DNA of 64,000 nt from a bacterium (GCA_965216315.1 CBDCFN010000016.1:32001-96000); one strand, 5' to 3'; shown: positions 940-64,000, counted from the stretch's first letter. Numbers and translations are program-made. The notes: generated by a model not told the origin, from the sequence alone.

Positions 940-956
940 GGGCGCAGCGCCCCTAC
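940..956. repeat. Degenerate GTAG-family REP-like hairpin between convergent genes
   Basis: GGGCGCAGCGCCCCTAC; ends in the same CGCCCCTAC as the copy inside trmD. Confidence 0.5.
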
Positions 957-2305
957 AATTCTTCTATTGGTAAGGGGTTGGCGGCGAGAAATCTATCGCC
1001 CTCCCAACCACTGATTACGTCGATACTGATATCCAAATATTTATCGCGATACTCTTCTTCAGTGATCAGGCCGGCGTCGAGCTGATAGCGCCGCAACACT
1101 TTGGGAATGAAATTACTGATGAGGGTGGCACTTTTCGGCCAGGGTCCGCTTCTCTTAAGATAAAGCAGGCGGGCGATCGTAAATGCGAGCCCGACCTTTT
1201 GAATGCCTGTGGACCGCGATTGATCCGGTTTGAAATTCCCTTCGCCCCGTAGCGAAACATGTGAGGGAGAGCGCGAAATATTATTAGAGCTACTCGCAAC
1301 GACTTCTCCATCCAAGGTTCGCATAATGAGAATGAGGTTAGCGTCGGGATTATTGGACGTGCGGCTGATGATGTGTCTGACCTCAGCTCCTACCGGGCCG
1401 GCAAGTTCACGCTCGGCCTCTGCCGGTGAAAAACGTTCGATAATCACCGGACAATCGCGCCCCTGTCGTTGCAGCGTCATTTTGAGGGGTGGGAATTCGG
1501 GGTCGCGTCGGGGAGTAAACGATAGTTTTGTTACGATGGGAATGTCAGGAATGGGCTCGGGGCGCGCCCGTTCAGCCAATTCATCGGGAGTTAAGAGCTT
1601 TACATCGGTGAGTTTCGTTGCCGCGGAGGGCAGGGCGCTCGTTCCTTCAACGCGCCCCAGAATATAGGAGGATCCGTCGAGCAGGCCGCCTAAAGCGACT
1701 TCAAGTCCGTTGATAATCATGTAGTCAGCGCTGCGATGACTCTTGGTGAGCGTAATCGGTGCGATTGTTCCATGAATGACCGGTTCATGCTGCCAGCGGG
1801 AGACGTCAACGGCGGGAATATGGTCGACCTCGCTGAGCAAGTCCGCCAGCCGGAAATAGGCGCGGTAATTGCGGCGGCGCTGCGGTTGCTGACTGATCGT
1901 AATCAACGGGGATTGATGGGTAATCTCCGCTACATTTAAAAAAGCCGGGTTTGGAATGATGGCGGGTAAAGCCATCACGATGGTTCCATCGGCCTCCGTC
2001 TGGAGAAAGTCTTCGTAACGGGAATTTTCAATCACGTGTGCGACTAAGGCGGTCTTGGTGTCGCGTGCCCAACGCATACCGGTGAGTCCTCCGTGAGTTC
2101 GATTCATCATGTAGAGCCGATTCAAGTCGTCGATGGCTTCGAACTGGACAGGGAGCTCACCTCGTTCGAAACGATTCATGAATTGTTGTTCTTGTGCGCG
2201 GGCCCGCGGCGGAGCGCTTGCGGTCAAATGCTGAGTAGAACTCGCGGCCAGGAGGCCGGTCGCATAGAGCCCGGACAGCGTCGTTGCGGTGAGAAAAAGA
2301 GACAT
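953..2305 (-). CDS. Hypothetical protein, S/T/A/L-rich N-terminus, possible degenerate GNAT-like C-terminal domain
   Basis: Long ORF; start moved to ATG 2305 (MSLFLTATT), 8 nt after the promoter -10; FKPDQSRSTGIQKVGL resembles GNAT motif A. Confidence 0.7.
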   Translation of the reverse strand: MSLFLTATTLSGLYATGLLAASSTQHLTASAPPRARAQEQQFMNRFERGELPVQFEAIDDLNRLYMMNRTHGGLTGMRWARDTKTALVAHVIENSRYEDFLQTEADGTIVMALPAIIPNPAFLNVAEITHQSPLITISQQPQRRRNYRAYFRLADLLSEVDHIPAVDVSRWQHEPVIHGTIAPITLTKSHRSADYMIINGLEVALGGLLDGSSYILGRVEGTSALPSAATKLTDVKLLTPDELAERARPEPIPDIPIVTKLSFTPRRDPEFPPLKMTLQRQGRDCPVIIERFSPAEAERELAGPVGAEVRHIISRTSNNPDANLILIMRTLDGEVVASSSNNISRSPSHVSLRGEGNFKPDQSRSTGIQKVGLAFTIARLLYLKRSGPWPKSATLISNFIPKVLRRYQLDAGLITEEEYRDKYLDISIDVISGWEGDRFLAANPLPIEEL

Positions 2306-2313
2306 CAATAGCA

Positions 2314-2340
2314 TTGTCGCGATGCAGACAAAAAAGTTGT
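2314..2340 (-). promoter_or_regulatory. Sigma-28-like promoter (ACAAC-N14-CGCGACAA), leaderless
   Basis: Matches the motif shared by seven orphan units; ATG 8 nt downstream. Confidence 0.6.
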
Positions 2341-2399
2341 CGGCCGCCGTGGCGGAAATATCTCTTCAAGTTATTGTTTTTTATGGGAAAATTTGCTTC

Positions 2400-2426
2400 G
2401 AAACTTTTCGCATAAGGACGCGATAA
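2400..2426 (+). promoter_or_regulatory. Sigma-28-like promoter (GAAAC-N14-CGCGATAA), leaderless
   Basis: Same spacing as the other copies; ATG 2436 lies 9 nt downstream with no SD. Confidence 0.62.
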
Positions 2427-2435
2427 AGGCACGCT

Positions 2436-3857
2436 ATGGTCTTGAGTGCGTCTCTCGCAAATGTGCAGGGGCTCGTGCAGCAGGGTTCTTTGGCGCAAGC
2501 GGCGACGACCCTGGGGCACTATTCCCATGTTGTATCAGGTATCGATTGGTTGGCGACAACCGCCACCGTGATTGCAGGTCTCGATCACGAGGAATCCGTA
2601 CGGCAGCATGCCCTGTCCCAGTTGCTGGCGAGCGAACCGGTGACGCGCCTCTTTCATTCTGACGACAGAGCGGTTTTTTCGGCGTCGGTTCGGTCGATGA
2701 CTTTCGACCATTTGCGTTCCCATGAAGCGGCAGTAGCGCATTTAATCGGGAGCTTTCCTGATTGGGATGAGCGGGTCGTCCAGCTCAGTCTGGCGAGTGT
2801 GATTCAGGCCGGTGGCCTGGGGGACTTAGTCCTGCAACTGGAACGCCGTTACGGCGATTTTACTGCTGAACAGTCGGCCCAAGCGCGGGAAGAGTTGCAG
2901 AGAACACGGGTGAATTTTAGCTCGGAATTTAAGGAATTTCGTCATTTTTCCATTGCGGAGAAACAGGCGGCTGTACGGGGAAAATGTACGATTCCCTTGG
3001 AACACAAAGAAATCATCGATGATAAATGTCGCAGTGTTAATTTTGTTCATACCCTGCTCGATCTGGCTTTTATACGCGCCTATCTGGATCGGACCTATCC
3101 GATGCATGAGCTCTATGCGCAGGGCGATCGGCCCCGCCTATTCAGTAATTATTTGCGCAGCATTCAAGACAGCGATGATTACGGGAATGGGAGCTGCATG
3201 CCGGCGACGACTCTGGCGGCCGATTTAGGCCTGCGGGCCGGCTTCGATTTCAAGTTTCTTCACCACGTCGGTCACGTCAATCTCTATCACGCGCCATCCC
3301 ACGTCGTCTTTGAGCCGGCACCCGGCGTCAACGATACGATTAATTTATTGAGTCGCTTCCAGCGCGGTGGGGCCTACGGAAGAACACAAACACCGACCCC
3401 TTTGGCGGCGTTGCTGGTCGGAGTCGCCGGCAATGTTCTCGTCGCGGAACGGCGCGAAGCGGACCTCGACGGCGCGGAGCGACTCTTTGCCGGTTTGGAG
3501 AAATTAGGCGCGCCGTCCAGTGCGTTTTATCTCCAAAAGGTTGAAATCGCCCTGTTGAGGCAAGACCCGGTCGCTGCGGAGCAAGCAATGCGTAAAGGGC
3601 TGGCCGTGAATGCGACCGATTACCGGCTCGTCGCGAGAGGCTTCGATATCATGGCGTTACGTGATTCCGAGCAGGCCTTAAAACGTGGGGAGGCTATCTT
3701 GTGTCAGCTGACCGGGATGCGTCAGCGCATGCGGGCGACTTTCGGCGAAGGTCAGCTCACCCAAATTGATCGGTGGGCGCGTTCCCTGCGGCGCCGCATC
3801 GGGGACACCCGTGAGCGGATCCGCACTCAACAACGGGCCGGCGACCGCGAGGACTAG
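2436..3857 (+). CDS. Transglutaminase-like (Cys-His-Glu) domain protein with C-terminal TPR-like helices
   Basis: GNGSCMPATTLAADLGLRAG...VGHVNLY...VVFEP resembles the SirB1/Transglut_core2 pattern; helical repeats follow. Confidence 0.65.
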   Translation: MVLSASLANVQGLVQQGSLAQAATTLGHYSHVVSGIDWLATTATVIAGLDHEESVRQHALSQLLASEPVTRLFHSDDRAVFSASVRSMTFDHLRSHEAAVAHLIGSFPDWDERVVQLSLASVIQAGGLGDLVLQLERRYGDFTAEQSAQAREELQRTRVNFSSEFKEFRHFSIAEKQAAVRGKCTIPLEHKEIIDDKCRSVNFVHTLLDLAFIRAYLDRTYPMHELYAQGDRPRLFSNYLRSIQDSDDYGNGSCMPATTLAADLGLRAGFDFKFLHHVGHVNLYHAPSHVVFEPAPGVNDTINLLSRFQRGGAYGRTQTPTPLAALLVGVAGNVLVAERREADLDGAERLFAGLEKLGAPSSAFYLQKVEIALLRQDPVAAEQAMRKGLAVNATDYRLVARGFDIMALRDSEQALKRGEAILCQLTGMRQRMRATFGEGQLTQIDRWARSLRRRIGDTRERIRTQQRAGDRED

Positions 3858-3932
3858 CCGTTTACTATTTTATTGAAAATACTATCTCAATTCCCTCTAG
3901 CTTAAATAGGCATTTCAATATAAATTAAATAA

Positions 3933-3945
3933 TATCAAATAGTTA
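3933..3945 (+). promoter_or_regulatory. IHF-like binding site in AT-rich intergenic region
   Basis: TATCAAATAGTTA fits WATCAANNNNTTR. Confidence 0.45.
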
Positions 3946-4004
3946 TATTAATATATTAATTGAAGCAGTGTATACTCTCGTCAACAAATTCTCCGTCAAA
4001 ACAC

Positions 4005-4031
4005 GCACCTAAAGCGGCCCCCCGCCGATAA
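4005..4031 (+). promoter_or_regulatory. Sigma-28-like promoter (GCACC-N14-GCCGATAA)
   Basis: Perfect FliA -10 octamer GCCGATAA at 4024-4031 with the variant -35 at the shared spacing. Confidence 0.7.
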
Positions 4032-4114
4032 TACAATCAAATTCGGCAAGACCGGCTTATCCAGCCATGAGTCATTGCCTGGTGCAAAAAACTTTTTAAG
4101 TGGGAGACGGAAAC

Positions 4115-4798
4115 ATGACAGTATCAAATGTAGATCAAGGTTATATCAATCGTTATGTAAGCGCGGCCGTGAAATTAAATCCGAAGATGACGCGTGAGCA
4201 GATTGATTTTGCCTTGAGTCATACGATCGTCAGAGAGATGGGGGAAAAGGGCAAGGTCGTCAATCGCGAGGCCCTCCTGAAAGATATCCGGGCGAGTAAG
4301 GGTGTCGTTCCGCAACAGGCAACGGGAGCCCAGCTGCAAGGTGATCCTCCCAATGAATTGCCCAAGGTGAAAGACCCAGAACCAGTTGTTGAAAAGAAGG
4401 CACGCATTACGGAAGAAGTTATCTATACGGGTTACTTCCCGCCTTATCTCGGAGAAGGAAGTTCGCTGGGTGTCCACTTGAACAAGCTCTTGGGCGCACA
4501 AAATATTGCCGTGCAGGGAATTACGCTGGTCAGTGAGCCACGTGAATTACCCGCAAATAATAAGAATGTCGTCGGCATGTGGGTAGCAATTTCCGAAGAC
4601 GGAAGCGTTGGTGTGAACTACCGAGTTGTTCATGGCAAAGACTTGATTGAAGAGAATAAACTTGCGGTCGCGATGTTCAACTGGTTGGAGAAGGACAAAT
4701 TTCCGGAAGATGCACGTCCAGAAGGTTGGGTGTACGTTGAAGTTCAGCTGGCGCCGCCCGCTGAGAAGCAGGACGATAAGATAGCGCTAAATTTCTAA
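4115..4798 (+). CDS. Hypothetical protein, paralog of 4901-5506; possible TonB-C-like C-terminal domain
   Basis: ATG 4115 after GGGAG; shares AAVKLNP-M---QI-FALSHTI-REM-E-GKVV and VYV-V-L-PPAEK with the next gene. Confidence 0.75.
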   Translation: MTVSNVDQGYINRYVSAAVKLNPKMTREQIDFALSHTIVREMGEKGKVVNREALLKDIRASKGVVPQQATGAQLQGDPPNELPKVKDPEPVVEKKARITEEVIYTGYFPPYLGEGSSLGVHLNKLLGAQNIAVQGITLVSEPRELPANNKNVVGMWVAISEDGSVGVNYRVVHGKDLIEENKLAVAMFNWLEKDKFPEDARPEGWVYVEVQLAPPAEKQDDKIALNF

Positions 4799-4900
4799 AC
4801 GAATCTATCGGGGGATAGTGTTATGTCAGGTGCGAATTTCCGGCAAATGCCTGTCCCTCAATACTAATCATTTGCAACAACAAAATTGGGAGACATTTAA

Positions 4901-5506
4901 ATGGCAGTAGGAAGTACACAATCAGGAGTCAGCCAAGCGTATTTTGATCAATACGTCGAGGCGGCTGTAAAGTTAAATCCGGGAATGGATCAGGACCAGA
5001 TCAAGTTTGCCTTGAGTCACACGATTGCCCGCGAGATGCGCGAGCAGGGCAAGGTTGTCGATCGTACTAAGCTTATGGCTGACATTGGGAAAACGAAGGG
5101 TCTGCAATTAGCGAAGGCTCCTTCCGCCGTACTCCACGGAAATCCGCCTAAGGTTGAGAAAGCCACTGTCAATACGAGTGCCTTTGTGGGGCATGTGGGC
5201 ACTTTAATTGCAGGAGCAGGTATTGACGAAGCCACTGTCAGCATCGTTCCAAAGCCGACCGATGAGACGCCAGAAAAACCAAATACGGTGATACTTGAAG
5301 TTCAGTTGCTTGACGGCGGAATGGTCCATAACGTTAAAGCTGTAAGAGGCGAAAAGCGTGTCGATCATAATAAATGGGTAGAAGCTATGAATCCGATGAC
5401 AAAGAATTTCCCGGCAGGCTCATTCCCTAAAGTTAACGAGCACGGTATTAGTACCGTCTACGTTCAAGTTGAGTTGCCGCCGCCGGCTGAAAAGCCTGGG
5501 GCCTAA
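4901..5506 (+). CDS. Hypothetical protein, tandem paralog of 4115-4798
   Basis: Conserved ~60-aa N-terminal block and C-terminal motif; GGGAG RBS. Confidence 0.75.
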   Translation: MAVGSTQSGVSQAYFDQYVEAAVKLNPGMDQDQIKFALSHTIAREMREQGKVVDRTKLMADIGKTKGLQLAKAPSAVLHGNPPKVEKATVNTSAFVGHVGTLIAGAGIDEATVSIVPKPTDETPEKPNTVILEVQLLDGGMVHNVKAVRGEKRVDHNKWVEAMNPMTKNFPAGSFPKVNEHGISTVYVQVELPPPAEKPGA

Positions 5507-5904: not shown

Positions 5905-6037
5905 GTTTCAGTAGCTGGTTAAGTAAACCTGTAGCTTTGCTAGCAGGTTTACGTGGGGGTATGGGGGATATCGGCAGTGAGGTCAAGTATAGAAAGACGC
6001 GAGTAGCAACGATAACGAGCTGCCGGGTCCCCCATTC

Positions 6038-8384: not shown

Positions 8385-9764
8385 TCAACCGCTGACAAGT
8401 TCGCTTGCATGGGAGCGATCGAAAAGACTGGCGGGATCTTGGCCGACATGGAGATTGGCCTGGAGGTGGGCGGCTGTCTGTTTGAGTGCAAAGGCGAAGC
8501 CCGACGTCGGATCGGCTTCAATGGCCTCACGCACGAGTTGATTGACGTGAGCAGCGCTTTCGGGCGCACCGGCATCGGCAAGCGTACGCGCGAGTTTCGT
8601 CAACAGCATGGCGCGGTCGGAGGCATCACTTATTCTTGAGGCGATGTCTAATGAACTGGTCAGCCAGTTGAGATGCATGAGACGAAGATACCAGTTGAGG
8701 GTGGCCTCCGCGATGAAACTTAAAGTCGTATTGTGACTGGCCTCTGAGGGCTGCTGCGCGATTGCGTTGACCAATTCGTCGATTAGCTGGGGGCCCAGCG
8801 GGCCCAGTCCCGCTGGCGGGAGATTCGCTGCCAGCGTGCGCAGCCGGTGACTGCGGTGGACCGGATCGGTGTCGGCCTGGGCATGGGATAAGATGTGTCG
8901 AAATAATGAGGGGATCAGGGCATGGCGACCTCGTTTGCTGAGAAGGCTCATGGCTTGGCACAACGATGCGGTATCACCTGTCACGTGCAAATCGCTGATG
9001 AGCTGATCGCCCCACTCGTGAAGTCCATGTTGGTAAAATAAGGCAACGTGGCGGAGCAGGCAACGATGACGAGTGCCACTATCTTCAATGCGGCTGAGGG
9101 CGTTACGTGTTTCCGTGAGGAGTGTGAGCGGGCGCGCGATCGCCGGCTGTATCATATACGTTTCACTGATGAGAAATTGGAGTCGCGACTGAAACGAGGC
9201 ATCGGTCAAGCTGAGGCCATCCTGCTTCGCTCGTTCCAGCGCATGTCCTGCGAGCAAAGGCTCCTTATGTTCGGCGGCCTTGCGGGCAAAATAAACGAAA
9301 CTCTGTCCCCGGTATTCAGGCAGACCCATTTGTTCGACTTGCCGCAGTTCCGCTTCCAAGCTTGGATCCAGGTCGATGGACGCTAAACCGGGATGGCCCA
9401 GCTGAAGGGACCCCAAGATTTCGGTGCAATAGCTTTGAATTAAGTCGGGAGCGAGGAAAAAGGGGGTGAAGCCGGGTTGCTGCACGATGCGGGCGAGGCC
9501 TGCCGGGAGGGAGTGATCGGTGCCGAGCTCTCGTTGCAATAAAGTTTGAAAGCGCCAGACGGCCTGACTCAGATCACGGGAGCCGGCTTGAAGGGCCTGG
9601 AGTCCCCGTTCGGGTTGGGCAAAGGCCTGGGCCGCCGTGCGCAGGGCCTGCGGATCCCGCCGCGAAACGGCGCCTTGATCCTGCAGGACCGAGCAGACCA
9701 GGCTGCCAAAGGAGGTGGCCGCGAGAGCCGTGGGTGTTAGCAAGGTTGAGGTAAACATAGACAT
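8385..9764 (-). CDS. Hypothetical alpha-helical repeat (TPR-like) protein with S/T/A/L-rich N-terminus
   Basis: 459-aa ORF; repeated A..I.D...R...L..LA helices. Confidence 0.65.
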   Translation of the reverse strand: MSMFTSTLLTPTALAATSFGSLVCSVLQDQGAVSRRDPQALRTAAQAFAQPERGLQALQAGSRDLSQAVWRFQTLLQRELGTDHSLPAGLARIVQQPGFTPFFLAPDLIQSYCTEILGSLQLGHPGLASIDLDPSLEAELRQVEQMGLPEYRGQSFVYFARKAAEHKEPLLAGHALERAKQDGLSLTDASFQSRLQFLISETYMIQPAIARPLTLLTETRNALSRIEDSGTRHRCLLRHVALFYQHGLHEWGDQLISDLHVTGDTASLCQAMSLLSKRGRHALIPSLFRHILSHAQADTDPVHRSHRLRTLAANLPPAGLGPLGPQLIDELVNAIAQQPSEASHNTTLSFIAEATLNWYLRLMHLNWLTSSLDIASRISDASDRAMLLTKLARTLADAGAPESAAHVNQLVREAIEADPTSGFAFALKQTAAHLQANLHVGQDPASLFDRSHASELVSG

Positions 9765-11611: not shown

Positions 11612-14600
11612 ATGTCTCCGCGCAGTGATAAGAATATAGACATTGCCAGCTGGCAGCGTCATCGCCGGATTGGCGCCGGGGCCTTCGGGGAAGTTTGGTT
11701 GGTTGAGGATCCACTGCGCAAGCAGCCGGTGGCCCTTAAGTTTCTCAAATTGGAGCACAGTACGCCGGAAGAACTTGAGCTCTTTAAGCGCGAATTTGCA
11801 CTGCTTTCGGAATTGCGGCACACGCATCTCGCCCAAGTCTACAACTTTGGTTACTCCGAAAAAGAAGAACAATATTATTTTACCTCGGAGTTCTGTCCGG
11901 GAAGCCCTTTATTGGAGGCCCTTGAGAATCAATCGGTCAGTTATTTTGAACAGGTGCTTGTTCAAATCCTGACGGCGCTTGATTATGTCCACGGCAACGG
12001 GACGATTCATTTCGATATTAAATCGGACAATATTTTGGTGGACGATCGTGAGGGAACGCCTGCCGTTAAGATTCTCGATTTTGGAGTGGCGGCCAAACTC
12101 AAGACACTTCCTCAGGGAATGACGGGGACGCCGGCTTATATGGCGCCGGAGGTCATTACCCAAAGTGATCAGATTGATCATCGGGTCGATCTCTATTCGT
12201 TGGGCATGTTGTGTTTTCGTGCGTTGACGAAATCGCTGCCGTTTAATGCCGCTGTGATGAATGATGCGATGCAGTGGCATTTGCGAGGCAAATTGACGGA
12301 TGAAGATTGGCGCGGACATGAGGTTCCCGATTATTTACGTGAATTGACCGAAAAACTCTTGGCCAAGAATCCGTCAGAGCGATTTTCGAGTGCGCGTGTT
12401 GTCTTGAATTTTATCAATATTGCGACGGGTCAAAAGTATCAGGATGCCGAGGCCGAGCTGGAATGGAAGTTACCCGCGACCGGTCCGCTCGTCGGCAGAG
12501 AGAGCGTGTTGGAGCAATTGGAACATCTCATGGCGGGTGCTACGGCCGATGGCCAATCCATTGCGGAGTCGGCCGTCTGCTTTCTGTCCGGAGAATCGGG
12601 AATCGGCAAGAGTCGCTTAATCGACGAAATGCGGCGTCGCATCGAGCTGCAGGAGATTCCTTTCTTCAGCATTGTTTGCGACTGGCAAATTCCGGAATGG
12701 CCGCAATTGGCTGATTGGCTTCAATTGGAGTCGTTGGCCGGTGACGAACTCAGTGAAGAGTGGCAGACCAAACGGCGCGTCGATGCGATCATCGACGAAG
12801 CCAAGCAGCGGCCGCTTTGTCTCTTGATCGATGACTTCCATAAGGCGGACCGTGACATGCGTTTGTTCGTTGAAAGCCTGGCGCAACGGAGTCGAAAAGA
12901 GCGTGAAGCGGGCCATGCCGTGCCCATCTTTGCCCTCGTTGCTGGTGATACCGAACGCGATGAGGGGATGCAGATTCAGCGTTTAAGCGAGGCTCACATT
13001 ACTCAGTACACCCAACTGGTGCTCGGAGATAGTGACCGCCTTGATGATGTTGCTAAGGTGTTGCAGCAATATTCAGGCGGGCTCCCCTTGTTGATGGTCG
13101 AGGGGCTCCGTTATATGGCGCCACACATCTACCGACAAGAACCCATCGAAAACCTGATGCCGCCCCCGCAGATAGGAGATCTCTATGCTGAGCGCATCCA
13201 ATCACTGAATGAAGCCGAACGGGAGTTTTTGCTGACGATTGCGCTTGTTTTTCGACCGACCAGCCAAGAGGAACTGACAAAAATATTGGGTAAACCGCTT
13301 GCTGAGGTTGCGCAGTTAGCTGTGGCGTGTCAGCGGCAAGGATTGACTAAAGAGACGACGGCGCTTCATGATGCCAAACATTACCAGGCGTCGAGTCAAG
13401 CGCTTGCGCTGGATCTCATCCGTATCATTGATGCAGAGCAGCGGCAACGCATTCATCTCCAGATTGCTCGAGGCCTTGAACAAATTGGTTCGAGTTCAAA
13501 AGAAGAACTGGGCTTTCATATGGCGAAGGGGGGGGAGACGGAAAAAGGACGCCAGTATTACACGGAGGCGGGAGAGGCCTTGAAGCTGGCCGGTCAGATC
13601 GCATCGGCCGCTCAGTATTTTGATAAGGCGATTGAGTTGGCAACGCCTCATTCAAAGGATTGGCAGCAACTCATTGAAAAGACGACGCGGCTACTCGTCC
13701 TCTCAGGGGCGTTCGCCGACGCTTCGGAGCATCTTGAGCGTCTCAAGGATGTTCCGTCGGCCACACGTGAGGAATTAAAGGGGTGGTTGGCCTTCAAGCA
13801 ACGTCAGTTTGCCCCGGCACGTGAAGCTTATCAGAAGGCGCTGCAACTTCTGGCGGGGACGCGTTCGGTGGATCGTATCATTATTGAGAATTCGCTTGGC
13901 AATGTGGATTTGCAGGATGGCCAATTCATAGCTGCTGAGTCGCGTTTTCAGGAGACGCTCAAAGAAGAGGAAAGCCTGCCGCCAAAAGAGCTGAAGCGGG
14001 TGAGTAATAACAATTTGGGCTTGGTGTTGGCCGTGCAGGGCAAGACCGATGAGGCGGTGGTTTTTTATCAGCAGCGGCTGGCGCGTCTGGCTCCGGATCA
14101 GATGACAGATAGGATTTCGTTATTGAATGGCCTGGGTTATGCGTTGATTCAGGCCTCTCGCTATGATGAAGCGATTGAGTATTTGGATCAGGCGCGCGAA
14201 CTTGCCGAAAAGTCGGGAGCCTTGCATGCGCTCTTTTCGATTATGGGAAATCTGATTACCTCACTGCTCAAGGAAGCACGCTATGCTGAGAGCCTTCCCC
14301 TCTTGAAAAAGATTATTGGTCACCAGGAACGGCTCGGCAACAGTCGCGATGTGGCGTTCAACTTGTTACGACAAGGGAGTACCTACCTGACTTTGGGTAT
14401 GGTTGAGGCGGCCGAGGAATGTTTCGAGAAAGGGCGTCGAGTGGCCCAGTCTACAAGTGCTCCTAGCGTTGCGGCCTGGTTTCTCTTGATGAGGGGTTAT
14501 CGGGAGCGTGAATACGGAACTATCAGTAAGGCGAATGAATTTTATCAGCAGACTCTAGCCGAGGCTGAGGCGATACCGGATCAGGCTTTGGCGGACTGGG

Positions 14601-16708
14601 CCTATTATTCACTGGGAGATGTGAGTTATGAGGCCGGGGATCTGAATCAGTGCGCGGAATACGTCGCTAAGATCCATTCTGATTCTCAGGATCAGGAGTT
14701 TGAAGCGAGGCGGCGCTTATTGGCACTCAAACTGGGGGTGGCGCGTGGCGACGAGATGGACATCGACAAAGAGTTCGAACAGTTGGTCCAGACCTGCGAT
14801 CAAGGAAAGTATCGCGAAGTCCTTTGGGAGGTTTATGATGGTTGGGGCCGCATTTATTTAAAGGCTGGTCAGCAGGAACGCGCGTGCCAATTATTCAAAC
14901 AGGCTATGGAGACGCTGGATAGAATTGTCAGCACGATTCCGGAAGAATACCGCGATCGCTACATGAAGCAAAATGCGCGGGCCCGTTTGCAGCGTGACCT
15001 GAAAAAACTTGAAGCGGCACCGGCCTCGATATCGGTATGGAACGCGCCGGTGAAAAAGACCTGGCCCCAAGTCTCTTCAACCTCCGATACGATTGCCCAG
15101 GGACAATCACATTCGCAGCTCAGTGCCTCCGAACTTGAACAGTCGCTCAATTACCTACTTGAGATCAACAAACGCATGGTTTCCGAACGAGACCCGCAAC
15201 GGCTGCTTGAAGAGATTATGGATACGGCTATTGAGATGGCAGGAACCGAAGAAGGTTTGTTGCTCATTCCCAATGCCGCTGATGAACTGGAGACGCGCAT
15301 TGCGCGCAACATTAACAAATCAGATATCGATCGTGTGCATTTTTCCGAGTCGGTTGCCCGTGAGGTTTTTGCAAGTGGTGAAGCAATTTTTTCGATTAAT
15401 GCGATGTCAGATACCAAGCTCAGTAGTTTTGAGAGCGTTGTGAGTCGTGGACTCATGACGGTTATTTGCCTTCCCCTCAAGATTCAAAACAAAGTGATCG
15501 GTGTTATTTACATGGGGACGAAGAAACATCTCATCGTACCAGATCAATTGCTACGTATCTTGCAGGCATTCGCCGACCTTTCGTCACTTGCCTTGCGCAA
15601 TGCGGAGATATTCCAGAATCAGGCCAGGGACAACGAGCGGCTCCAAGCGGATCTTTCGTTGACCCAGCAGGAATTAGAGGAAAAGGCCGAACAGCTTCAG
15701 GAGCTTGAGTCGCTTGCATCCGTTGCCCCGCGCAAGACAGTCTTTCCTTATGAAGAGATTATTGGAAAGTCCTCTCAGATGGAACAGGTTCTCCAGACCT
15801 TGGACAAGATCACGAATGCCAAGGTGCCGGTATTCTTGTTCGGCGAGACGGGGACGGGTAAAGAACTGCTGGCGCGAGCCCTGCACCAGAATAGTATTCG
15901 CGCCCGCCATGCCTTTGTTGCGATCAATTGTTCGGCTTTTACCGAGACCATTTTGGAAAGCGAGCTCTTTGGCTCAGTCAAGGGGGCCTTTACCGGAGCG
16001 GATCGGGACCGCAAGGGGCTGTTTGAACAGGCCCATCAAGGGACGCTCTTTTTAGATGAAGTGGCGGATATGAGCCTGAGCATGCAGGCGAAATTATTAC
16101 GGGTGATCCAAGAGCAGGAATTGATGCGTGTCGGTGGGCGAGAGCCGATCAAGGTCGATGTGCGCATCGTTGCAGCGGCCAATCGCGACCTGAAGAAAAT
16201 GGTCCATGACGGCGAATTTCGCGAGGATCTCTATTTTCGCCTCGCGGGAGTGACGATCAAGTTGCCTCCCTTGCGCGATCGGCGTGATGACATTCCATTG
16301 CTCGCCAAGCATCTCATCGATAAAATTCGCAACACTAATAACATCAAATCAGAATTAAGGCTTTCTAAAGAGGCTTTACGCATTCTTTTGCAGCATGGAT
16401 GGCCCGGTAATATTCGCGAGCTGGAGCAATGTCTCACCAATGCCTGCCTCTTTGCAGAGAGCGAGGTGATTGAGCCGGAACAGATCATTTTGGCAGGGAC
16501 GATGGTGACAGAGGCCAAACCGAGTCTATCGACCCCGGCCTCCCTCATCGAATTCAACCCCGAGCGCAGTCTCGAAGACTATGAGTGTGAGATTATCCGC
16601 CGGACCGTCGAGTTCTACGATGGCAACAAGAGCGAGGCCTCCCGTCGCCTGGGGCTCTCGCGACTGACCCTATATAAAAAATTGAAAGCTCCTTCATCAG
16701 TTCATTAA
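11612..16708 (+). CDS. Hybrid Ser/Thr kinase - P-loop ATPase - TPR - GAF - sigma-54 activator - Fis HTH
   Basis: IGAGAFGEV, VALK, HFDIKSDN, DFG, APE; GESGIGKS; TPRs; GAF; GETGTGKE, GAFTGA, WPGNIREL; C-terminal HTH. Confidence 0.9.
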   Translation: MSPRSDKNIDIASWQRHRRIGAGAFGEVWLVEDPLRKQPVALKFLKLEHSTPEELELFKREFALLSELRHTHLAQVYNFGYSEKEEQYYFTSEFCPGSPLLEALENQSVSYFEQVLVQILTALDYVHGNGTIHFDIKSDNILVDDREGTPAVKILDFGVAAKLKTLPQGMTGTPAYMAPEVITQSDQIDHRVDLYSLGMLCFRALTKSLPFNAAVMNDAMQWHLRGKLTDEDWRGHEVPDYLRELTEKLLAKNPSERFSSARVVLNFINIATGQKYQDAEAELEWKLPATGPLVGRESVLEQLEHLMAGATADGQSIAESAVCFLSGESGIGKSRLIDEMRRRIELQEIPFFSIVCDWQIPEWPQLADWLQLESLAGDELSEEWQTKRRVDAIIDEAKQRPLCLLIDDFHKADRDMRLFVESLAQRSRKEREAGHAVPIFALVAGDTERDEGMQIQRLSEAHITQYTQLVLGDSDRLDDVAKVLQQYSGGLPLLMVEGLRYMAPHIYRQEPIENLMPPPQIGDLYAERIQSLNEAEREFLLTIALVFRPTSQEELTKILGKPLAEVAQLAVACQRQGLTKETTALHDAKHYQASSQALALDLIRIIDAEQRQRIHLQIARGLEQIGSSSKEELGFHMAKGGETEKGRQYYTEAGEALKLAGQIASAAQYFDKAIELATPHSKDWQQLIEKTTRLLVLSGAFADASEHLERLKDVPSATREELKGWLAFKQRQFAPAREAYQKALQLLAGTRSVDRIIIENSLGNVDLQDGQFIAAESRFQETLKEEESLPPKELKRVSNNNLGLVLAVQGKTDEAVVFYQQRLARLAPDQMTDRISLLNGLGYALIQASRYDEAIEYLDQARELAEKSGALHALFSIMGNLITSLLKEARYAESLPLLKKIIGHQERLGNSRDVAFNLLRQGSTYLTLGMVEAAEECFEKGRRVAQSTSAPSVAAWFLLMRGYREREYGTISKANEFYQQTLAEAEAIPDQALADWAYYSLGDVSYEAGDLNQCAEYVAKIHSDSQDQEFEARRRLLALKLGVARGDEMDIDKEFEQLVQTCDQGKYREVLWEVYDGWGRIYLKAGQQERACQLFKQAMETLDRIVSTIPEEYRDRYMKQNARARLQRDLKKLEAAPASISVWNAPVKKTWPQVSSTSDTIAQGQSHSQLSASELEQSLNYLLEINKRMVSERDPQRLLEEIMDTAIEMAGTEEGLLLIPNAADELETRIARNINKSDIDRVHFSESVAREVFASGEAIFSINAMSDTKLSSFESVVSRGLMTVICLPLKIQNKVIGVIYMGTKKHLIVPDQLLRILQAFADLSSLALRNAEIFQNQARDNERLQADLSLTQQELEEKAEQLQELESLASVAPRKTVFPYEEIIGKSSQMEQVLQTLDKITNAKVPVFLFGETGTGKELLARALHQNSIRARHAFVAINCSAFTETILESELFGSVKGAFTGADRDRKGLFEQAHQGTLFLDEVADMSLSMQAKLLRVIQEQELMRVGGREPIKVDVRIVAAANRDLKKMVHDGEFREDLYFRLAGVTIKLPPLRDRRDDIPLLAKHLIDKIRNTNNIKSELRLSKEALRILLQHGWPGNIRELEQCLTNACLFAESEVIEPEQIILAGTMVTEAKPSLSTPASLIEFNPERSLEDYECEIIRRTVEFYDGNKSEASRRLGLSRLTLYKKLKAPSSVH

Positions 16709-18698: not shown

Positions 18699-18753
18699 CC
18701 CCGTCCCCCAATCTTGGGGCGCATCTTAGGGAAAAAGGGGGAGGGCGTCAACA

Positions 18754-19875: not shown

Positions 19876-19947
19876 ATTGATGAATTATACGCTTGGGGCG
19901 TGGGTAAAGGCAGCAATATTTAGAATCTATTGAAATCACTGATTTAA

Positions 19948-38171: not shown

Positions 38172-38173
38172 TA

Positions 38174-57596: not shown

Positions 57597-57606
57597 AAGG
57601 CGTGGG

Positions 57607-57635: not shown

Positions 57636-57686
57636 GTGCGGCAAAACTTGATCTTAGGGAGGTCTTTCTCGTAGTCTGCCCGCCTG

Positions 57687-59422: not shown

Positions 59423-59473
59423 TGTATTGTGTGGAAGTATTCACAATCGTTCATATTGACGTAAGTGGACGCG

Positions 59474-62470
59474 TTATTCGCTCGAGTGTGCAGACATATA
59501 TGCGGTAAGTTTGTTTAGATCGATCCGGTCGGTCTCAATGAATCGCGGCATAGACAACCAGAAATAATCAAAAAAGGCTTCAGGTCCCAGGGCCTCTTGC
59601 CACAGTGACTCAAGGGCCACGGTATGTCGCTGGGGATCGCGCTTAATCAGGCGACGCGAGCGGTGGATCAGGTCGACGAGGCTCTGTGCCGTTTGGTTCC
59701 ATTCGCCGCTGATGGCGTAGGACTTGCGCAGTCCGATGAAAACGCGTTCCAACATCCGGTCCGTGCCCCGGCTAACTAGTGCCAGCATCTGTTCAGCGCT
59801 TGCGATATGCCTTTTAAGGGGTTCCGGATTAATATCCAATACGAACTTAGTCCCGTTCAAATAATCAATAGGGTTTTGCGGCGCTAAGGCCTCGGTCCAG
59901 GCCTGAATCAGCTGGTCGCGGTCTTGTATCCCATGATAATAAGCCAGTAGTTTCGCGAAGTCATGGCGCGCCGTTTCGCTCCCATGCTCTTTAAAGAAGA
60001 GGCGACGCTCTCTTTGCTCGCGAGCTAACATGTGAACCAACTTGACAAAAGCATTCGATCGGGAAAGGGGTCGGAGACCTTCGAAACTGGTTCTGCGCCA
60101 AAAAGGTTTCTCTATATACCCTGTAAATTGTTTTGAACGCGATGGATGACGCAGCTTACGCAGGGCTTTGGCCTCAATTTGGCGGATTCTTTCTCTTGAT
60201 ACTTCAAATTTATCTGCCACTTCATCAAATATGTAGTCGCGCCGCTTATCAATGCCAAAGCGCAATCGAATGACTTTTTCTTCGCGTGGCGTTAATGTCT
60301 TCAGGGCGCGAGGCACAAGGTCGGTTAGCTCTATCAAGTCATAAGCTTGATCCGGACTCTTTGTGGCGACAGGTTGGTAGCCAGTTACTGCGGCGGCATT
60401 TATCACGTCCTGAGCTGTACCCGTAGCAATTTCCTCGCACCAACCTGCTTTAAGTTCATGTTCGGCGAGGGCCTCTTCTAATGAGACGATTGCCTCTGCA
60501 GATGAAAACGGTGTCGTAACTGTAAAGACCGGCGAAAACAGCATGTCAGTAATGCGCTGGGTAACAGGAGAGTTTTTTTTAAGGTTAAACTTGCCGTTAA
60601 AAATATGGCTCCAGTTCACATAGGAAGCATGCCCTGTAAAGCCCAGTCTTCGCACGGCCTCGCGAATGGGCCCTATGCCCACCAGGTGAAGCGTCGAGCG
60701 TCGTATCAAGCGGATGAACTCGCGGACCTTGGGACCACCATCCTCTGACAGCGGATGTATATACTCAATTGCTTCCAGCGCATCTTGTTCCCAGACACGC
60801 AAGAGATCGTTAGGTTCAAGCCCCAAGCGTTTGGCTATCATGCGAACCTCATGAGTGGTTCTAGGTAAAGCCCCGTATAGATAACTATTAACCGTATCCA
60901 GATCGGCATCCAAGGCATTTGAGAGGGCCGTCATGTCACCCGCAAATCGCCCGGCCAACACATCCTCTAAGACTTTTTGTAACTGGCCTTCTTCATATTG
61001 AAAGCGGGTGGATTCCGTTGTAAAACGAAACTCCAAGCCGCGACGTGTTCCATGACGGGGTGTGAAAATTCGCCGCTTGACGATACTGTTGGATCGACCG
61101 TGATTTGGTCGAGGGATATTGAGCGGGTCATATTCGATTCCATCGGCGACACGATTCATAATATTAAAAAAGCGTGCGAGGTGCGCCATGTAATCGCGTG
61201 CACTCCCCGCGCTCTTCATTTCGATATTGAGGATCGTGCGTTGTTCTTCATCATCATGCACGCCCAAAGCGCGCCCCACTCGCTGCCCGTAGCGCCGTAA
61301 AGAGCTGCACTCGTAGTCATGGATGATGCCCTCGGTGCCACGGGCCCGATAACCGAAGGCGAGCATGCCGATGCTGATCAGCACCTTAACTCCGGAGCCG
61401 TCGCTATAGCCGGCAACGGCTTCGTCTAGTTCATCGTCCGGCATGCCCGAATAAATCGCTTTGGCGTAACCTTTGCCAAAACGGTCATTAAAGACCTGTT
61501 CATGGATTTGGGCGTGAAGAATCGACGAGGTAAAGAGTAAGGTTTTTTTGTCGTCGAGATGTTGTTGGTAGACATCCGCGACAGCCTGGCTCTGGATAAC
61601 AGAGGCATCGGGAATTTCGAGCCATTCATCCGATTTTTGGTGCAGGTGCGAGCGGATGATGACATCGTATTTTACGGAGAGTCCCTTGATCTTATGGAGG
61701 TAACCGCGTTCCATAAACCAACGTAGTCCCAGCGAAGAAATCTGTCGGCCGGTCCCAAATACTTTGTTCAATCGATATGGATCTGCGGTCAGTCCCAGTA
61801 AAAATTTTCCCGGATTTGCACTGATTTGTTGTTCTGAATCAAGAAAACCGAGATGCTCTAAGATTCGTTGCCAAGTCCCAGCCAGACTGAATGTCGCCTC
61901 GTCGATGACTACCAAAGCGAAACGGTCAGGATCCCATTGCTTGAGATTTTGTGCGCGTCCTAGAGTAAAGGCGCTGGCCAGGACAATATCATGCTTTCCA
62001 GTATAATCCTTGTGCTTGGCATCGATAATGCCGATACGCATTTGCGGTACGAATGATTGCAGGTCATCAAGGATCTGCTTGGTAATGATGCGATAGGGTG
62101 AGATCACCAGGGTCGTTTTGCCTGGAAAAATTTGTGCAGCGGCCTCCGCGAGGGGTCCGATGATCATTGTCTTGCCGGTCTGCGTGGGAGCGCGCATCAG
62201 AATGCGATCATGACCGGCTTGCATGGTCTCGACGACAGAATTTAATTGAGCTCGTTGATAGTCACGGAATTGGAGAATTGATTCGTCAGTAGCAGTGGCC
62301 TCTTCGAGAGGGGCCCAAAAACGAGGGATGCTCCATTCATGCGAAGCTGTGAGAAAAGAGGGTGCATTCCATCCCGATAGAAGGTGTAAGCTCTGTGGTA
62401 CCTGCCCAAGTATCGGAATAGCAATGGCCGGAGTTGCAAAAGGAATACTGATGGGTGCAATAAAACTCAT
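59474..62470 (-). CDS. Degenerate SF2 helicase + XRE-like HTH + RpoD-like sigma region 4 fusion
   Basis: RDYQ, PTQTGKT, IDEAT, GLTADP, QRVGRALG; LTPREEKVIRLRFG...VSRERIRQIEAKALRKLRHPSRS; start moved to ATG 62470. Confidence 0.8.
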   Translation of the reverse strand: MSFIAPISIPFATPAIAIPILGQVPQSLHLLSGWNAPSFLTASHEWSIPRFWAPLEEATATDESILQFRDYQRAQLNSVVETMQAGHDRILMRAPTQTGKTMIIGPLAEAAAQIFPGKTTLVISPYRIITKQILDDLQSFVPQMRIGIIDAKHKDYTGKHDIVLASAFTLGRAQNLKQWDPDRFALVVIDEATFSLAGTWQRILEHLGFLDSEQQISANPGKFLLGLTADPYRLNKVFGTGRQISSLGLRWFMERGYLHKIKGLSVKYDVIIRSHLHQKSDEWLEIPDASVIQSQAVADVYQQHLDDKKTLLFTSSILHAQIHEQVFNDRFGKGYAKAIYSGMPDDELDEAVAGYSDGSGVKVLISIGMLAFGYRARGTEGIIHDYECSSLRRYGQRVGRALGVHDDEEQRTILNIEMKSAGSARDYMAHLARFFNIMNRVADGIEYDPLNIPRPNHGRSNSIVKRRIFTPRHGTRRGLEFRFTTESTRFQYEEGQLQKVLEDVLAGRFAGDMTALSNALDADLDTVNSYLYGALPRTTHEVRMIAKRLGLEPNDLLRVWEQDALEAIEYIHPLSEDGGPKVREFIRLIRRSTLHLVGIGPIREAVRRLGFTGHASYVNWSHIFNGKFNLKKNSPVTQRITDMLFSPVFTVTTPFSSAEAIVSLEEALAEHELKAGWCEEIATGTAQDVINAAAVTGYQPVATKSPDQAYDLIELTDLVPRALKTLTPREEKVIRLRFGIDKRRDYIFDEVADKFEVSRERIRQIEAKALRKLRHPSRSKQFTGYIEKPFWRRTSFEGLRPLSRSNAFVKLVHMLAREQRERRLFFKEHGSETARHDFAKLLAYYHGIQDRDQLIQAWTEALAPQNPIDYLNGTKFVLDINPEPLKRHIASAEQMLALVSRGTDRMLERVFIGLRKSYAISGEWNQTAQSLVDLIHRSRRLIKRDPQRHTVALESLWQEALGPEAFFDYFWLSMPRFIETDRIDLNKLTAYMSAHSSE

Positions 62471-62478
62471 TGCGAGGC

Positions 62479-62505
62479 TTATCGGCGCCGATAGGATCTT
62501 GTTGC
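62479..62505 (-). promoter_or_regulatory. Sigma-28-like promoter (GCAAC-N14-GCCGATAA), leaderless
   Basis: Plus strand TTATCGGC 62479-62486 and GTTGC 62501-62505; ATG 8 nt downstream. Confidence 0.8.
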
Positions 62506-62599
62506 AGACTAAGTCTTTGAGCGAATTATTTTTGTTCACGAGAGTGAACGAGCTGTTTGCTAGCGACGCAGAGAATCAAAGACGACCGGTTTTAAAGGG

Positions 62600-63415
62600 T
62601 TAGAGCCCCATAATCACATCCACTTCATAACCAACCAGAACATTAAGCTGTGCATCTGTCACACCATCTGCTCGGATCCGATCAATTCGTGACGCTGAAA
62701 AACTAATGACATAATAAATGGACTCTAGAATCTCCGCACCGTCCGACGAATCTTTAAGAGCACACTCAATAGTCGACCGTGTCCAAGGTCGCAGCAAATA
62801 ACACCTGAGTAAGTCGGGTAGGGCTTGACTCGCATTGCGATCGCACAAAGTGAAAATCGCGGGAACGACCATTAAGTCGTCCGGATCCCCGAGCAACGTG
62901 CGATTAAGATCTGTTACCGTTTTATCATCGCATTCGAGAAGTCTTTCATGAGCCATGTGGCGAAGCAGCTGCTCTTGCCGGTAATCTAATGCAATATCCA
63001 GTAGCTGTTGCTTAGAACAAGCGTCGAGTTGGTGTGTCAGAATAATCTGCGGATCTGCGTCATTAAGTATCACTCCAGTCATAATTCTTTCAATTAACTT
63101 TTGGTCATCTGGATGTAGCACTACTGGTGACTCGAAATCGATGAACTCATCGACTGATGATGCCATAGCGCTTTCAATTTGATCAGTTAGCAAGGCTAAA
63201 CTCTGCCGTTCCGTCCGAAACGGTGTGGCGGTCAAAGCATAGTTTGAGGGTAAGCAGAGCCGCTGAAATTCGTCATGACTCGCGCTCAGTTGTTCAATAT
63301 TCGACACTGCTGGTTGTGCGTTAATCGTCGCGCTGGTAGCACTACCGGTATTAATTAAGGCCGCGCCGCTCGCGACGGAACAGAGCTGCGCGGATGTTAG
63401 TAAAACGTTATACAT
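62600..63415 (-). CDS. Hypothetical protein, S/T/A-rich N-terminus, HEAT-like helices
   Basis: GAGGAGG RBS; LLGDPDDLMVVPAIFTL....A.QALP.L resembles a HEAT repeat. Confidence 0.65.
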   Translation of the reverse strand: MYNVLLTSAQLCSVASGAALINTGSATSATINAQPAVSNIEQLSASHDEFQRLCLPSNYALTATPFRTERQSLALLTDQIESAMASSVDEFIDFESPVVLHPDDQKLIERIMTGVILNDADPQIILTHQLDACSKQQLLDIALDYRQEQLLRHMAHERLLECDDKTVTDLNRTLLGDPDDLMVVPAIFTLCDRNASQALPDLLRCYLLRPWTRSTIECALKDSSDGAEILESIYYVISFSASRIDRIRADGVTDAQLNVLVGYEVDVIMGL

Positions 63416-63452
63416 GGTCGTTCCTCCTCAAATGCCCCACACACGTTAGCGC

Positions 63453-63479
63453 TTATCGGATGAGCCAATTGAATGTTGA
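63453..63479 (-). promoter_or_regulatory. Sigma-28-like promoter (TCAAC-N14-TCCGATAA)
   Basis: Plus strand TTATCGGA 63453-63460 and GTTGA 63475-63479. Confidence 0.72.
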
Positions 63480-63572
63480 GCGGAATGGCCTTGCAGTCAT
63501 TATTTCCGTTCACGGGAGTGGACGTGTGATCCACTCGAGTGTGCGAATAAATAATTGTATAGCAAAAGTTGC

Positions 63573-63599
63573 ACAACAATAGCTACGGAACGCCGACCG
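63573..63599 (+). promoter_or_regulatory. Sigma-28-like promoter (ACAAC-N14-GCCGACCG)
   Basis: Same -35 and spacing; weaker -10. Confidence 0.5.
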
Positions 63600-63625
63600 C
63601 TTAAAGCGATAGGAGGATCTTATTT

Positions 63626-64000
63626 ATGTACGTTGCCTCAGCAATAGCACTTGATTCATCAGGCCTGATAGCCGCGTCGACTTTTTCAACGGCTCAGATT
63701 AGTTCTGCTCATGTAACAGGAGACGCATCCATGATTGAGCCACCTGCAACGTCCTTGCCCGTTGCCGGGTGGCGCTCTTTTGGTCTACGTTCGGCTTCGA
63801 TTGTCCCCAAGTTATTATTGCCTTTGTCTTTGTTGGCGACGGGTTGTGAGCCGAGGAGTGCGCATACAACTCCTAAAACACCCTCTGTTGTGACAATTTC
63901 CTCCGAGGAAGAAATTCAGGCGGGGCCTCTCAATGATGACCTCCGTCTTGATGAGAGCGATCCGGAGAATCCGCTGCTGATCATTGAGGATTGGCATCTG
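63626..64000 (+). CDS. 5' part of a hypothetical protein (runs off the window), S/T/A-rich leader then internal lipobox
   Basis: Hand-translated MYVASAIALDSSGLIAASTF...PKLLLPLSLLATGCEP..., open to the window end; AGGAGG RBS. Confidence 0.7.
   Translation, partial: MYVASAIALDSSGLIAASTFSTAQISSAHVTGDASMIEPPATSLPVAGWRSFGLRSASIVPKLLLPLSLLATGCEPRSAHTTPKTPSVVTISSEEEIQAGPLNDDLRLDESDPENPLLIIEDWHL

Follow-up and report, generated by a model that had tools for sequence, protein, structure and literature searches.

A FliA-like sigma factor in a non-flagellar type III secretion cluster, its probable promoter motif and a shared protein leader in a bacterium probably of the phylum UBA10199

Introduction

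The flagellar FliA-FlgM checkpoint places the class 2 basal-body genes before the class 3 filament genes. In the published sections considered here, FliA of Bdellovibrio bacteriovorus governs the attack phase, with a CCGATA -10 box at 92 of the 140 promoters of that phase (Karunker et al. 2013, PMC3627812). The type III secretion system (T3SS) of Myxococcus xanthus termed T3SS* (mxan_2434-2464), called 'needleless' in the accessible sections, is required when the bacterium lyses bacterial prey; by these accounts it has neither needle nor translocon and works with a Tad-like Kil pilus (Herrou et al. 2025, PMC12075869; Abby and Rocha 2012, PMC3459982). A secretin-less, SctF-bearing ancestor of the injectisomes is proposed in the sections available of the latter study (PMC3459982). 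The present analysis concerns a 64,000-nt stretch of bacterial DNA (G000:C16:32001-96000, hereafter the window) and a bipartite, sigma-28-like promoter motif that recurs in it. In the source genome (G000; 2.96 Mb, 98% complete, probably of the phylum UBA10199), the motif is linked to ~120 proteins that share an uncharged N-terminal leader, and the sole FliA-like sigma factor is encoded inside a non-flagellar type III secretion cluster.

The promoter resembles that of Bdellovibrio in that a sigma-28-type element with a CCGATA -10 box stands over a large programme of non-flagellar, surface and uncharacterised genes. The two differ in the -35 box (TTAAG there, RCAAC here), in the flagellum (present there, none found here), in the place of the sigma gene, which here lies in a non-flagellar T3SS cluster, and in the leader, no shared one being described in the Bdellovibrio sections considered. 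With T3SS*, as far as its description was available, the cluster has in common the lack of a secretin, the non-flagellar type and a deltaproteobacterial-type lineage, which does not imply orthology; needle-, rod-, ruler- and chaperone-like genes, a 250-gene regulon and tagged cargo set it apart. An additional full-length secretin that could serve a Tad or type IV pilus was not found here, in a search that did not extend to other Tad genes. By analogy, the system of G000 would fit the description of the secretin-less, SctF-bearing ancestor. What is new is a leader common to ~120 proteins, whose recognisable cargo is mostly cytoplasmic, a hierarchy among the promoters, and genes that resemble those for needle, rod and FlgM.

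How injectisomes arose from flagella is a question on which a secretin-less system with a needle and sigma-28 control would bear, and the rewired -35 box of a sigma-28 factor offers a clear example of how promoters evolve. Were the leader a consensus signal for type III export, substrate recognition, a long-open question, could be tested directly. No type III effector directed at bacteria has yet been identified, not even in Myxococcus, for which the accessible text speaks of 'potential effectors' (PMC12075869); the set described here offers ~120 candidate substrates and a lifestyle hypothesis for a phylum without described biology in the papers found. No published work on UBA10199 with type III secretion or promoters was found, nor anything on point for MXAN_2437 or for FliA, FlgM or injectisomes in uncultured or Myxococcota lineages, most subscription journals and supplements lying outside the search.

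The promoter motif and its regulon

A sequence-only reading of the window had described seven bipartite motifs, all with the same 14-nt spacing, before genes for orphan proteins, most of them with unusual N-termini, and had taken them for a sigma-28-like regulon of proteins exported by a flagellar or type III route. In window coordinates, the sites are:

2314..2340, minus strand: promoter-like site ACAAC-N14-CGCGACAA, 13.0 bits
2400..2426, plus strand: promoter-like site GAAAC-N14-CGCGATAA, 18.1 bits; ATG 9 nt on; divergent from the 2340 site
4005..4031, plus strand: promoter-like site GCACC-N14-GCCGATAA, 19.9 bits
9813..9839, minus strand: promoter-like site GCAAC-N14-GTCGATAA, 22.0 bits
62479..62505, minus strand: promoter-like site GCAAC-N14-GCCGATAA, 19.5 bits; within the longest open reading frame, 8 nt before an ATG at 62470
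63453..63479, minus strand: promoter-like site TCAAC-N14-TCCGATAA, 17.6 bits
63573..63599, plus strand: weak site ACAAC-N14-GCCGACCG, 9.7 bits; good -35 box, poor -10 box

All seven are present at the positions, on the strands and with the spacing that had been described; the site at 63573-63599 is weak, its -10 box scoring about zero, and taken alone it does not rise above background. Since the 2340 site overlaps the first ATG, the gene at 953 most likely starts at 2305, and since the 62505 site lies inside the longest open reading frame, the gene at 59474 most likely starts at 62470. Six more matches of at least 14 bits occur in the window, all in coding DNA.

In G000, for which gene calls and start codons are heuristic (2,480 genes called), the regulon promoter takes the form RCAAC-N14..16-NNCGATAA, with ~250 occurrences. 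The strict pattern CAAC-N14-NNCGATAA is found 90 times, 65 of these in the non-coding DNA that makes up 8.6% of the genome. Spacers of 15 and 16 yield 19 non-coding matches each, a spacer of 17 yields 4, one of 20 yields 2, and spacers of 8-13, 18 and 19 yield 0-1; the fixed spacing holds for all seven window sites, but genome-wide it widens to 14-16. A position weight matrix grown from motif sites of the strict pattern reads (A/C)(G/A)CAAC(T)-N13..15-(G)(C)CGATAA. In non-coding DNA the motif stands far above background, with 253 sites of at least 14 bits against 6.7 in shuffles; 234 of 255 sites point into a gene, the matrix having been trained on such sites. About 288 of the 2,480 called genes, roughly one in nine, carry a strong site. 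Because the matrix was trained on its own sites, the spacer counts and the phylum-wide counts of the strict pattern serve as independent tests: the latter give 10-105 matches in every genome of a 93-genome phylum sample (93/93), whose members are relatives and not independent of each other, versus 0-7 for the reversed pattern and 0-8 for a shorter spacer.

That motifs and leaders are products of chance or of a DNA-level repeat has a practically negligible probability. Chance would be consistent with the weakness of one window site in seven and with the 204 matches of at least 14 bits in coding DNA, but the enrichment is spacer-specific, strand-specific and phylum-wide, and the spacers are unrelated in sequence. 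Against a repeat, the leader is conserved at the protein level only.

As a side observation, three sigma-54 activator genes stand in tandem at window 36765-41006, and the third, at 39588, comes 7 nt after the end of a 15.5-bit, plus-strand site with a spacer of 16 (39552-39580), one of the six further matches in coding DNA.

The sigma factor

A FliA-type sigma factor, which the regulon proposed earlier would need, is present in G000: a FliA/WhiG-like gene (C16:350583-351410) lies inside the type III export cluster. It is the only FliA-like one among five sigma-70 genes, the others being RpoD, an RpoH-like gene and two of ECF size (these four named by eye). Its best family is TIGR02479, at 133 bits and thus under the curated cut-off of 189.6, and its best PDB matches are WhiG and FliA (E 3e-24 to 4e-21); judged by its sequence, the protein is a divergent FliA paralogue. 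An orthologue occurs in 91 of the 93 phylum genomes, and across the phylum the gene is embedded in the secretion cluster.

The proposed sigma-28 geometry holds for the -10 box and the spacing. As in FliA promoters, GCCGATAA stands 15 nt after a four-base -35 element (matrix consensus G-C-CGATAA, GCAA-N15), and the -10-reading region of the sigma factor aligns with FliA and WhiG. The -35 box is altered, as had been noted at the outset: RCAAC(T) takes the place of the canonical TAAA/TTAAG. The helix of region 4.2 that reads this box is SKSWTSRLH, compared with (S/T)ESRVSQ(L/I)H in FliA and WhiG, and SKSW and SRLH are invariant in 15 sigma sequences; this altered helix may account for GCAAC instead of TAAA. 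From these comparisons, the FliA-like sigma factor very probably reads the RCAAC motif.

Flagellin is present in 12 of the 93 genomes and does not stand under the motif: at 13 loci of flagellated relatives, no site of at least 14 bits lies within ~600 nt (best 13.7). On the -35 box, the family cut-off and the control of flagellin, the factor is not a member of the canonical FliA class.

The type III secretion cluster and its promoters

The apparatus claimed by the sequence-only reading exists elsewhere in the genome, as a type III export system of non-flagellar type. Its cluster (G000:C16:339083-372364) encodes SctV and SctN over the cut-offs of the injectisome models (806 vs 692 and 620 vs 605), SctR, S, T, J, L and Q as matches below cut-off, SctO, a FliO-like protein, an SctD-like FHA protein, two SycD-type chaperones and a ruler-like SctP with a FliK domain over cut-off. 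The export gate, ATPase complex and rings of injectisomes (SctRSTUV, SctN, SctL, SctO, SctQ, SctJ, SctD) are thereby represented; sctU is unlinked to the cluster and has its own promoter site. A second T3SS cluster around sctU was considered and rejected, as sctU stands alone there. An SctV-type gene is found in 91 of the 93 genomes (79 over cut-off). Domains of the flagellar rod (PF00460) and flagellin (PF00669) were not found in the 98% complete G000. Since the cluster holds no secretin, it is not a canonical injectisome. Two genes conserved within this cluster, for a 355-aa exported orphan (L008:18527-19591) and a PilW/Tgl-like TPR lipoprotein (L008:17284-18522), are candidates for the outer-membrane passage and its pilotin. 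Another protein, of 253 aa, matches a secretin in part and bears a signal peptide; its gene (G000:C16:16617-17378) is unlinked to secretion clusters.

The needle-like gene (183 aa) is flanked across the loci by a small helical gene on one side and a CdsG-type TPR gene on the other, in a conserved order E-like, F-like, G-like. In two profiles of its C-terminus, the top PDB match is the 43-aa chain of an EscG-type needle-chaperone entry, at weak E-values of 0.046 and 0.085. Complex prediction for the needle-like and TPR proteins gives 0.50 against 0.29 for the best control, a weak support: contact agreement between runs is 74% or more and the partner's predicted local distance difference test (pLDDT) is at least 59, for a kind of complex already solved; of 157 solved pairs 116 reach the score mark, as do 2 of 215 mismatched ones, but scores up to 0.60 comprise only 18 of the 157 solved pairs and yet both mismatches. 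The model of the C-terminus is one long, uninformative helix. This C-terminal helix belongs to a family of 1,965 representatives (E<=0.001), and in the 150 best of these it sits, with few exceptions, at the very C-terminal end. For the rod-like SctI, PF17001 is found below cut-off in 2 of 11 members, and MxiI is the third match (E 0.017). Weak as these matches are, it is doubtful that the cluster has no needle. The two SycD-type chaperones flank unnamed proteins without a Pfam translocator match.

A site precedes the needle-like gene at 16 of 16 loci, and one lies in the gap before it at 27 of 27; the operon of a 151-aa gene and a FlgM-like gene has one at 33 of 34. None was found before sigma (0/41), sctJ (0/33), sctR (0/31) or sctP (0/32), and few before sctN (5/40) and the sctI-like gene (3/21). 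The FlgM-like gene is fast-evolving and encodes ~100-140 aa; it follows the 151-aa gene and directly precedes sigma in most loci examined. Its product has a polar front half and a helical end, and the second PDB match of its profile is FlgM, at E 0.24, which makes the likeness to FlgM a lead and not an assignment. FlgM-like control of the sigma factor may be considered, tentatively. Most basal-body genes and sigma being without the promoter and the needle-like and FlgM-like operons having it, the regulon should switch on after the apparatus is built; sctV and sctU of G000 have sites, so that the split between basal-body and late genes is not clean. The flagellar hierarchy is alike in its basal-body genes without promoter and in a filament-like gene and a small, N-terminally disordered anti-sigma candidate with it. 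It differs in that no flagellin, rod or hook was found here, the identity of FlgM is weak and the late substrates would number more than 100.

The shared leader

Regulon comparisons set 281 regulon genes against 1,956 other G000 genes, with starts picked blind to the promoter. Positions 2-21 are free of charged residues in 111 of the 281 products compared with 62 of the 1,956, which bears out the proposed regulon of leader-bearing orphans in part, but Sec proteins, lipoproteins, regulators and secretion genes belong to it as well. The leader consists of Met, 8-18 residues rich in S/A/L/T and a terminal box, [LVI][LC]A[SA][SAGT]. Regardless of charge, this box is found in 56/281 regulon proteins versus 23/1,956 others; 53 were observed where shuffling leaves 3.0. 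The leaders are ~20-30 aa long (median first charged residue 29) instead of the 30-60 aa first suggested; their uncharged start and the lack of a basic n-region stand. All synonymous codons are used, which places the constraint on the protein.

A leader model picked 123 proteins, of which Lnt, TauE and an Ig-domain lipoprotein were dropped as false positives. Of the remaining 120, 117 are motif-linked (94 by a strong site, 7 by a weaker one and 16 by standing behind a site within a gene run), compared with 543 of 2,225 others. As the model was trained on regulon genes, a fairer test is offered by the 26 leader genes that lack a strong site themselves, 23 of which are motif-linked. Leader scores of at least 9 were obtained by 5 of 24 genes in G025 and 1 of 15, weakly, in G024, both genomes of the same family as G000. 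Two extensions of the pattern were rejected: a lipoprotein signal behind the leader as a general rule (3/120 vs 24/1,710, p 0.42), and the use, in other families, of a common larger N-terminal domain (P0006 vs giant synthases), for which blastp and tblastn gave no match.

Among the 94 leader genes with a strong site, 44 have their ATG 6-11 nt past the -10 box, so that their mRNAs are predicted to be leaderless or almost so, and 91 have a spacer of 14; conserved T3SS promoters have spacers of 15-16. None of the 30 genes with a spacer of 16 starts uncharged, and 19 of them look like Sec or lipoprotein substrates. Spacer length is possibly a code for strength or timing.

Cargo

No Pfam match (1e-5) was found for 86 of the 120 leader proteins versus 7 of 39 non-regulon window genes. 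Of the 34 with a match, 19 need ATP, GTP, NAD(P), coenzyme A (CoA), pyridoxal phosphate or nucleotide sugars. Cargo with cytoplasmic substrates comprises phosphofructokinase (PFK), GDH, malic enzyme, an acyl-CoA ligase, an acyltransferase, a DAG kinase, a SufS-like protein, RtcB, a glycosyltransferase, two hybrid histidine kinases, two cyclases, three protein kinases, a helicase, a carboxylase and a synthase. GDH and histidine ammonia-lyase (HutH) align over their full length to solved enzymes, the leader sitting before the natural start. HutH of relatives starts without an extension in 26 of 29 cases (one has no callable start, two have doubtful upstream starts), and none has a site.

The synthase is a diverged type I fatty acid synthase of 3,854 aa (L099:1-11562; G000:C15:370007-381571) with leader and promoter; its ketosynthase-like motifs are present and missed by Pfam, and giant versions in relatives measure 3,797-6,454 aa. 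The carboxylase is a 2,588-aa single-chain acetyl-CoA carboxylase with fused biotin ligase and a leader (L103:6083-13846; G000:C16:1632121-1639887); its neighbours, likewise tagged, are an acyl-CoA ligase and an orphan of 1,991 aa. Neither FabB/F nor FabA/Z was found in G000. A general inability of the phylum to make fatty acids does not follow from the search: 38 of 51 near-complete genomes have no ketosynthase match, yet the same search missed the diverged domain of the G000 synthase.

Regulon genes below the leader threshold, of which 67 of ~170 were scanned, include a RelA/SpoT domain and SLT, M23, S8 and patatin enzymes. Among the genes under the promoter are at least three for DUF4423 regulators, which implies a second control layer in the regulon. 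About 20 Cys/Pro/Thr-rich proteins without Sec signals (L146, L147, L140; G000:C16:2159181-2201381, minus strand), most with their own near-identical strong promoter, are candidate surface or filament parts; a like array is found in G025 C425. Tandem LamG paralogues are encoded at L090 (G000:C16:444170-456124); six have the leader, three of these with a second lipoprotein-type signal.

Destination of the tagged proteins

Judged by simple scores (charge, hydrophobicity and rules for type III signals), the leader is fairly likely to be a type III export signal for the tagged proteins. Rules drawn from Pseudomonas syringae call for a Ser-rich extreme N-terminus without early acidic residues. At least 10% Ser in the first 50 aa is found in 79% of the leaders and no acidic residue in the first 12 in 99%, and all three rules hold for 45% of leader proteins versus 5.8% of others, a contrast partly built into the choice of the set. 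The Ser-rich extreme N-terminus and the lack of early acidic residues are shared with injectisome effector signals; unlike these, the leader is leucine-rich and K/R-free, has a consensus box and precedes intact metabolic enzymes as cargo.

Several observations weigh against export by this route. Classical type III signals are not known to share a consensus or to be rich in leucine, and proteins of 2,000-3,854 aa would be an unusually large cargo for this route. Roughly half of the regulon is without the leader, none of the conserved needle-, rod- and translocator-like cluster proteins has it, and it was absent from the genes sampled in three other families (0/14, 0/26 and 0/28; 15-30 loci per genome). 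Both PF00263 matches in G000 lie outside the T3SS cluster, and the clear secretin is GspD of a type II secretion operon, the other match being partial and 253 aa long. Pfam T3SS_needle_F (PF09392) has no match over cut-off in the 93 genomes, and the needle, rod and FlgM assignments come from weak matches (E 0.046-0.085, 0.017 and 0.24). The terminal box formally fits the (-3,-1) rule of signal peptidase I (L/V/A/I, then L, then A) and resembles a lipobox without the cysteine. PFK, HutH and the synthase have no leaderless copy, and the tagged synthase is the sole one detected in G000, so that some tagged enzymes may serve the producer itself.

The likeness of the box to both motifs, together with the type II operon, would suit an uncharged, weakly hydrophobic Sec signal, perhaps of lipoprotein descent, that is cut after xLA and sends the cargo to the periplasm and on through type II secretion or vesicles. 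Folds typical of exported proteins are found in the six tagged LamG paralogues and in one FGE-sulfatase protein, and in G024 and G055 some regulon genes encode weak signals with a lipobox at their end. The leaders are nevertheless no ordinary Sec signals, as the sequence-only reading had held. K/R precedes the box in 2/56 regulon proteins versus 10/23 of the other genes, so that a basic n-region is missing, and a strong hydrophobic h-region is missing too, the median hydrophobicity being 1.52 (10-90%: 1.17-1.88) versus 2.77 (2.30-3.05) in 53 lipoprotein signals. GspD and OmpA-family envelope proteins of the same cell have normal charged signals, and the 19 of 34 named cargoes listed above would find no substrates outside a cytoplasm, which makes a Sec route distinctly unlikely.

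The need of the cargo for cytoplasmic cofactors can also be met at home. The leader would then be an address or turnover tag within the producer's own cytoplasm (a degron, or a chaperone or compartment tag) in a sigma-driven stage of the life cycle, as the tagged PFK, HutH and sole detected synthase, the very large cargo and the lack of a linked secretin would allow. In the Bdellovibrio sections considered, FliA likewise controls many non-exported genes (PMC3627812). Such a tag is, however, unlikely: the genome holds a second, untagged copy for no fewer than six types of tagged enzyme (GDH, malic enzyme, SufS, RtcB, biotin carboxylase and acyl-CoA ligase), and HutH lacks its downstream partner, urocanase not being found in G000, although it is present in 33 of 41 other hutH genomes and absent from 8. 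Moreover, 86 of the 120 tagged proteins are without a Pfam match, homologues have unrelated N-terminal extensions, and the sigma gene is embedded in the secretion cluster phylum-wide. The single-chain form of the enzymes cuts both ways: it would suit delivery into a foreign cell, yet the tagged synthase may be the producer's own.

If the leader is a type III signal, the system could work in the following manner: The basal body would be assembled first, followed by export of the FlgM-like inhibitor, a weakly supported step. The sigma factor would then transcribe the needle-like gene, the tagged set and genes encoding surface proteins, hydrolases and regulators. The leader would send the tagged proteins through the type III gate into a bacterial cytoplasm, where the delivered enzymes and regulators may redirect the metabolism and signalling of the target. 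That the target is bacterial prey or a bacterial host is possible; it is favoured because of the sigma region 4, hybrid histidine kinases, RelA/SpoT and the M23 and SLT enzymes, ankyrin repeats and an ATP/ADP translocase not having been found in G000. Effectors for a eukaryotic (protist) host, like those of classical injectisomes, are very unlikely. SctV over the injectisome cut-off and the SycD-type chaperones would fit such a host, where Ser/Thr kinases, a macro domain and the single-chain acetyl-CoA carboxylase could act, and the best structural match of the domain encoded at 953 is Hat1, within a general GNAT signal; but the missing ankyrin repeats, nucleotide translocase and cluster secretin speak for another target, and sigma region 4, histidine kinase-receiver hybrids and RelA/SpoT make sense in bacteria. 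Going beyond a bacterial target, the phylum may live by injection into other bacteria with a secretin-less, needle-bearing, sigma-28/FlgM-run system, the cell farming its host's metabolism, beyond mere lysis, by leader-directed delivery, in this family, of more than 100 proteins, among them a self-sufficient lipid line (synthase, carboxylase with biotin ligase, acyl-CoA ligase, acyltransferase, malic enzyme and phosphofructokinase); as a whole, this picture is rather unlikely.

Genes of the window

The genes behind the seven sites are, in window coordinates:

953..2305, minus strand: leader protein; leader score 26.8 from the ATG at 2305, 28.4 from 2314; two G000 paralogues, both with leader
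2436..3857, plus strand: 473-aa leader protein; leader score 12.9; no Pfam/NCBIfam match
4115-4798 and 4901-5506, plus strand: paralogue pair, 35% identical; polar start, no Pfam match
8385..9764, minus strand: 459-aa leader protein; leader score 21.2; no Pfam/NCBIfam match
59474..62470, minus strand: 998-aa SF2 helicase with sigma-70 region 4; uncharged N-terminus without terminal box
62600..63415, minus strand: 271-aa leader protein; leader score 13.7; no Pfam/NCBIfam match
63626..64000, plus strand: 5' part of a 446-aa protein (G000:C16:95626-96966); leader score 9.7; no Pfam match

Five of the six products to which a leader had been ascribed carry the shared one (scores 9.7-28), but the 59474 protein has no terminal box (-2.8). 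The paralogue pair, set apart from the start for its polar N-terminus, indeed has no shared leader; the 4115 protein shows a weak TonB_C-like feature match (0.92, 104/256 features), which is a lead only. The label of orphan does not hold throughout. The 59474 protein has nine homologues with unrelated, mostly charge-poor N-terminal extensions, and its region 4 is 57% identical over 75 aa to the RpoD of G000 itself. The C-terminal ~200 aa of the 953 protein are predicted, in a low-confidence model (pLDDT 55.6, predicted template modelling score 0.61), to adopt a GNAT-like acyltransferase fold. In a fold search the best Z is 8.8 (root-mean-square deviation 3.5 over 121) and GNAT proteins dominate the top 50; Foldseek gave no match at E<=0.001, an atlas search gave 0.87 at best, a lead only, and a single-sequence search, with 8000 candidates scored, turned up nothing but the protein itself. 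In an orthologue of the 953 protein the leader differs but has the same terminal box. The 446-aa protein has a lipoprotein-signal-like stretch near residues 62-74, behind its leader.

Rfam has no match within the window, and no look-alike windows were found in other genomes. Further genes of the window include a 1,698-aa kinase-NTPase-TPR-GAF-sigma-54 activator fusion (11612-16708) and, at 21406-24759 and 17415-21219, a Cys/Pro-rich 1,117-aa lipoprotein with a divergent OmpA-family gene and two neighbours without Pfam match.

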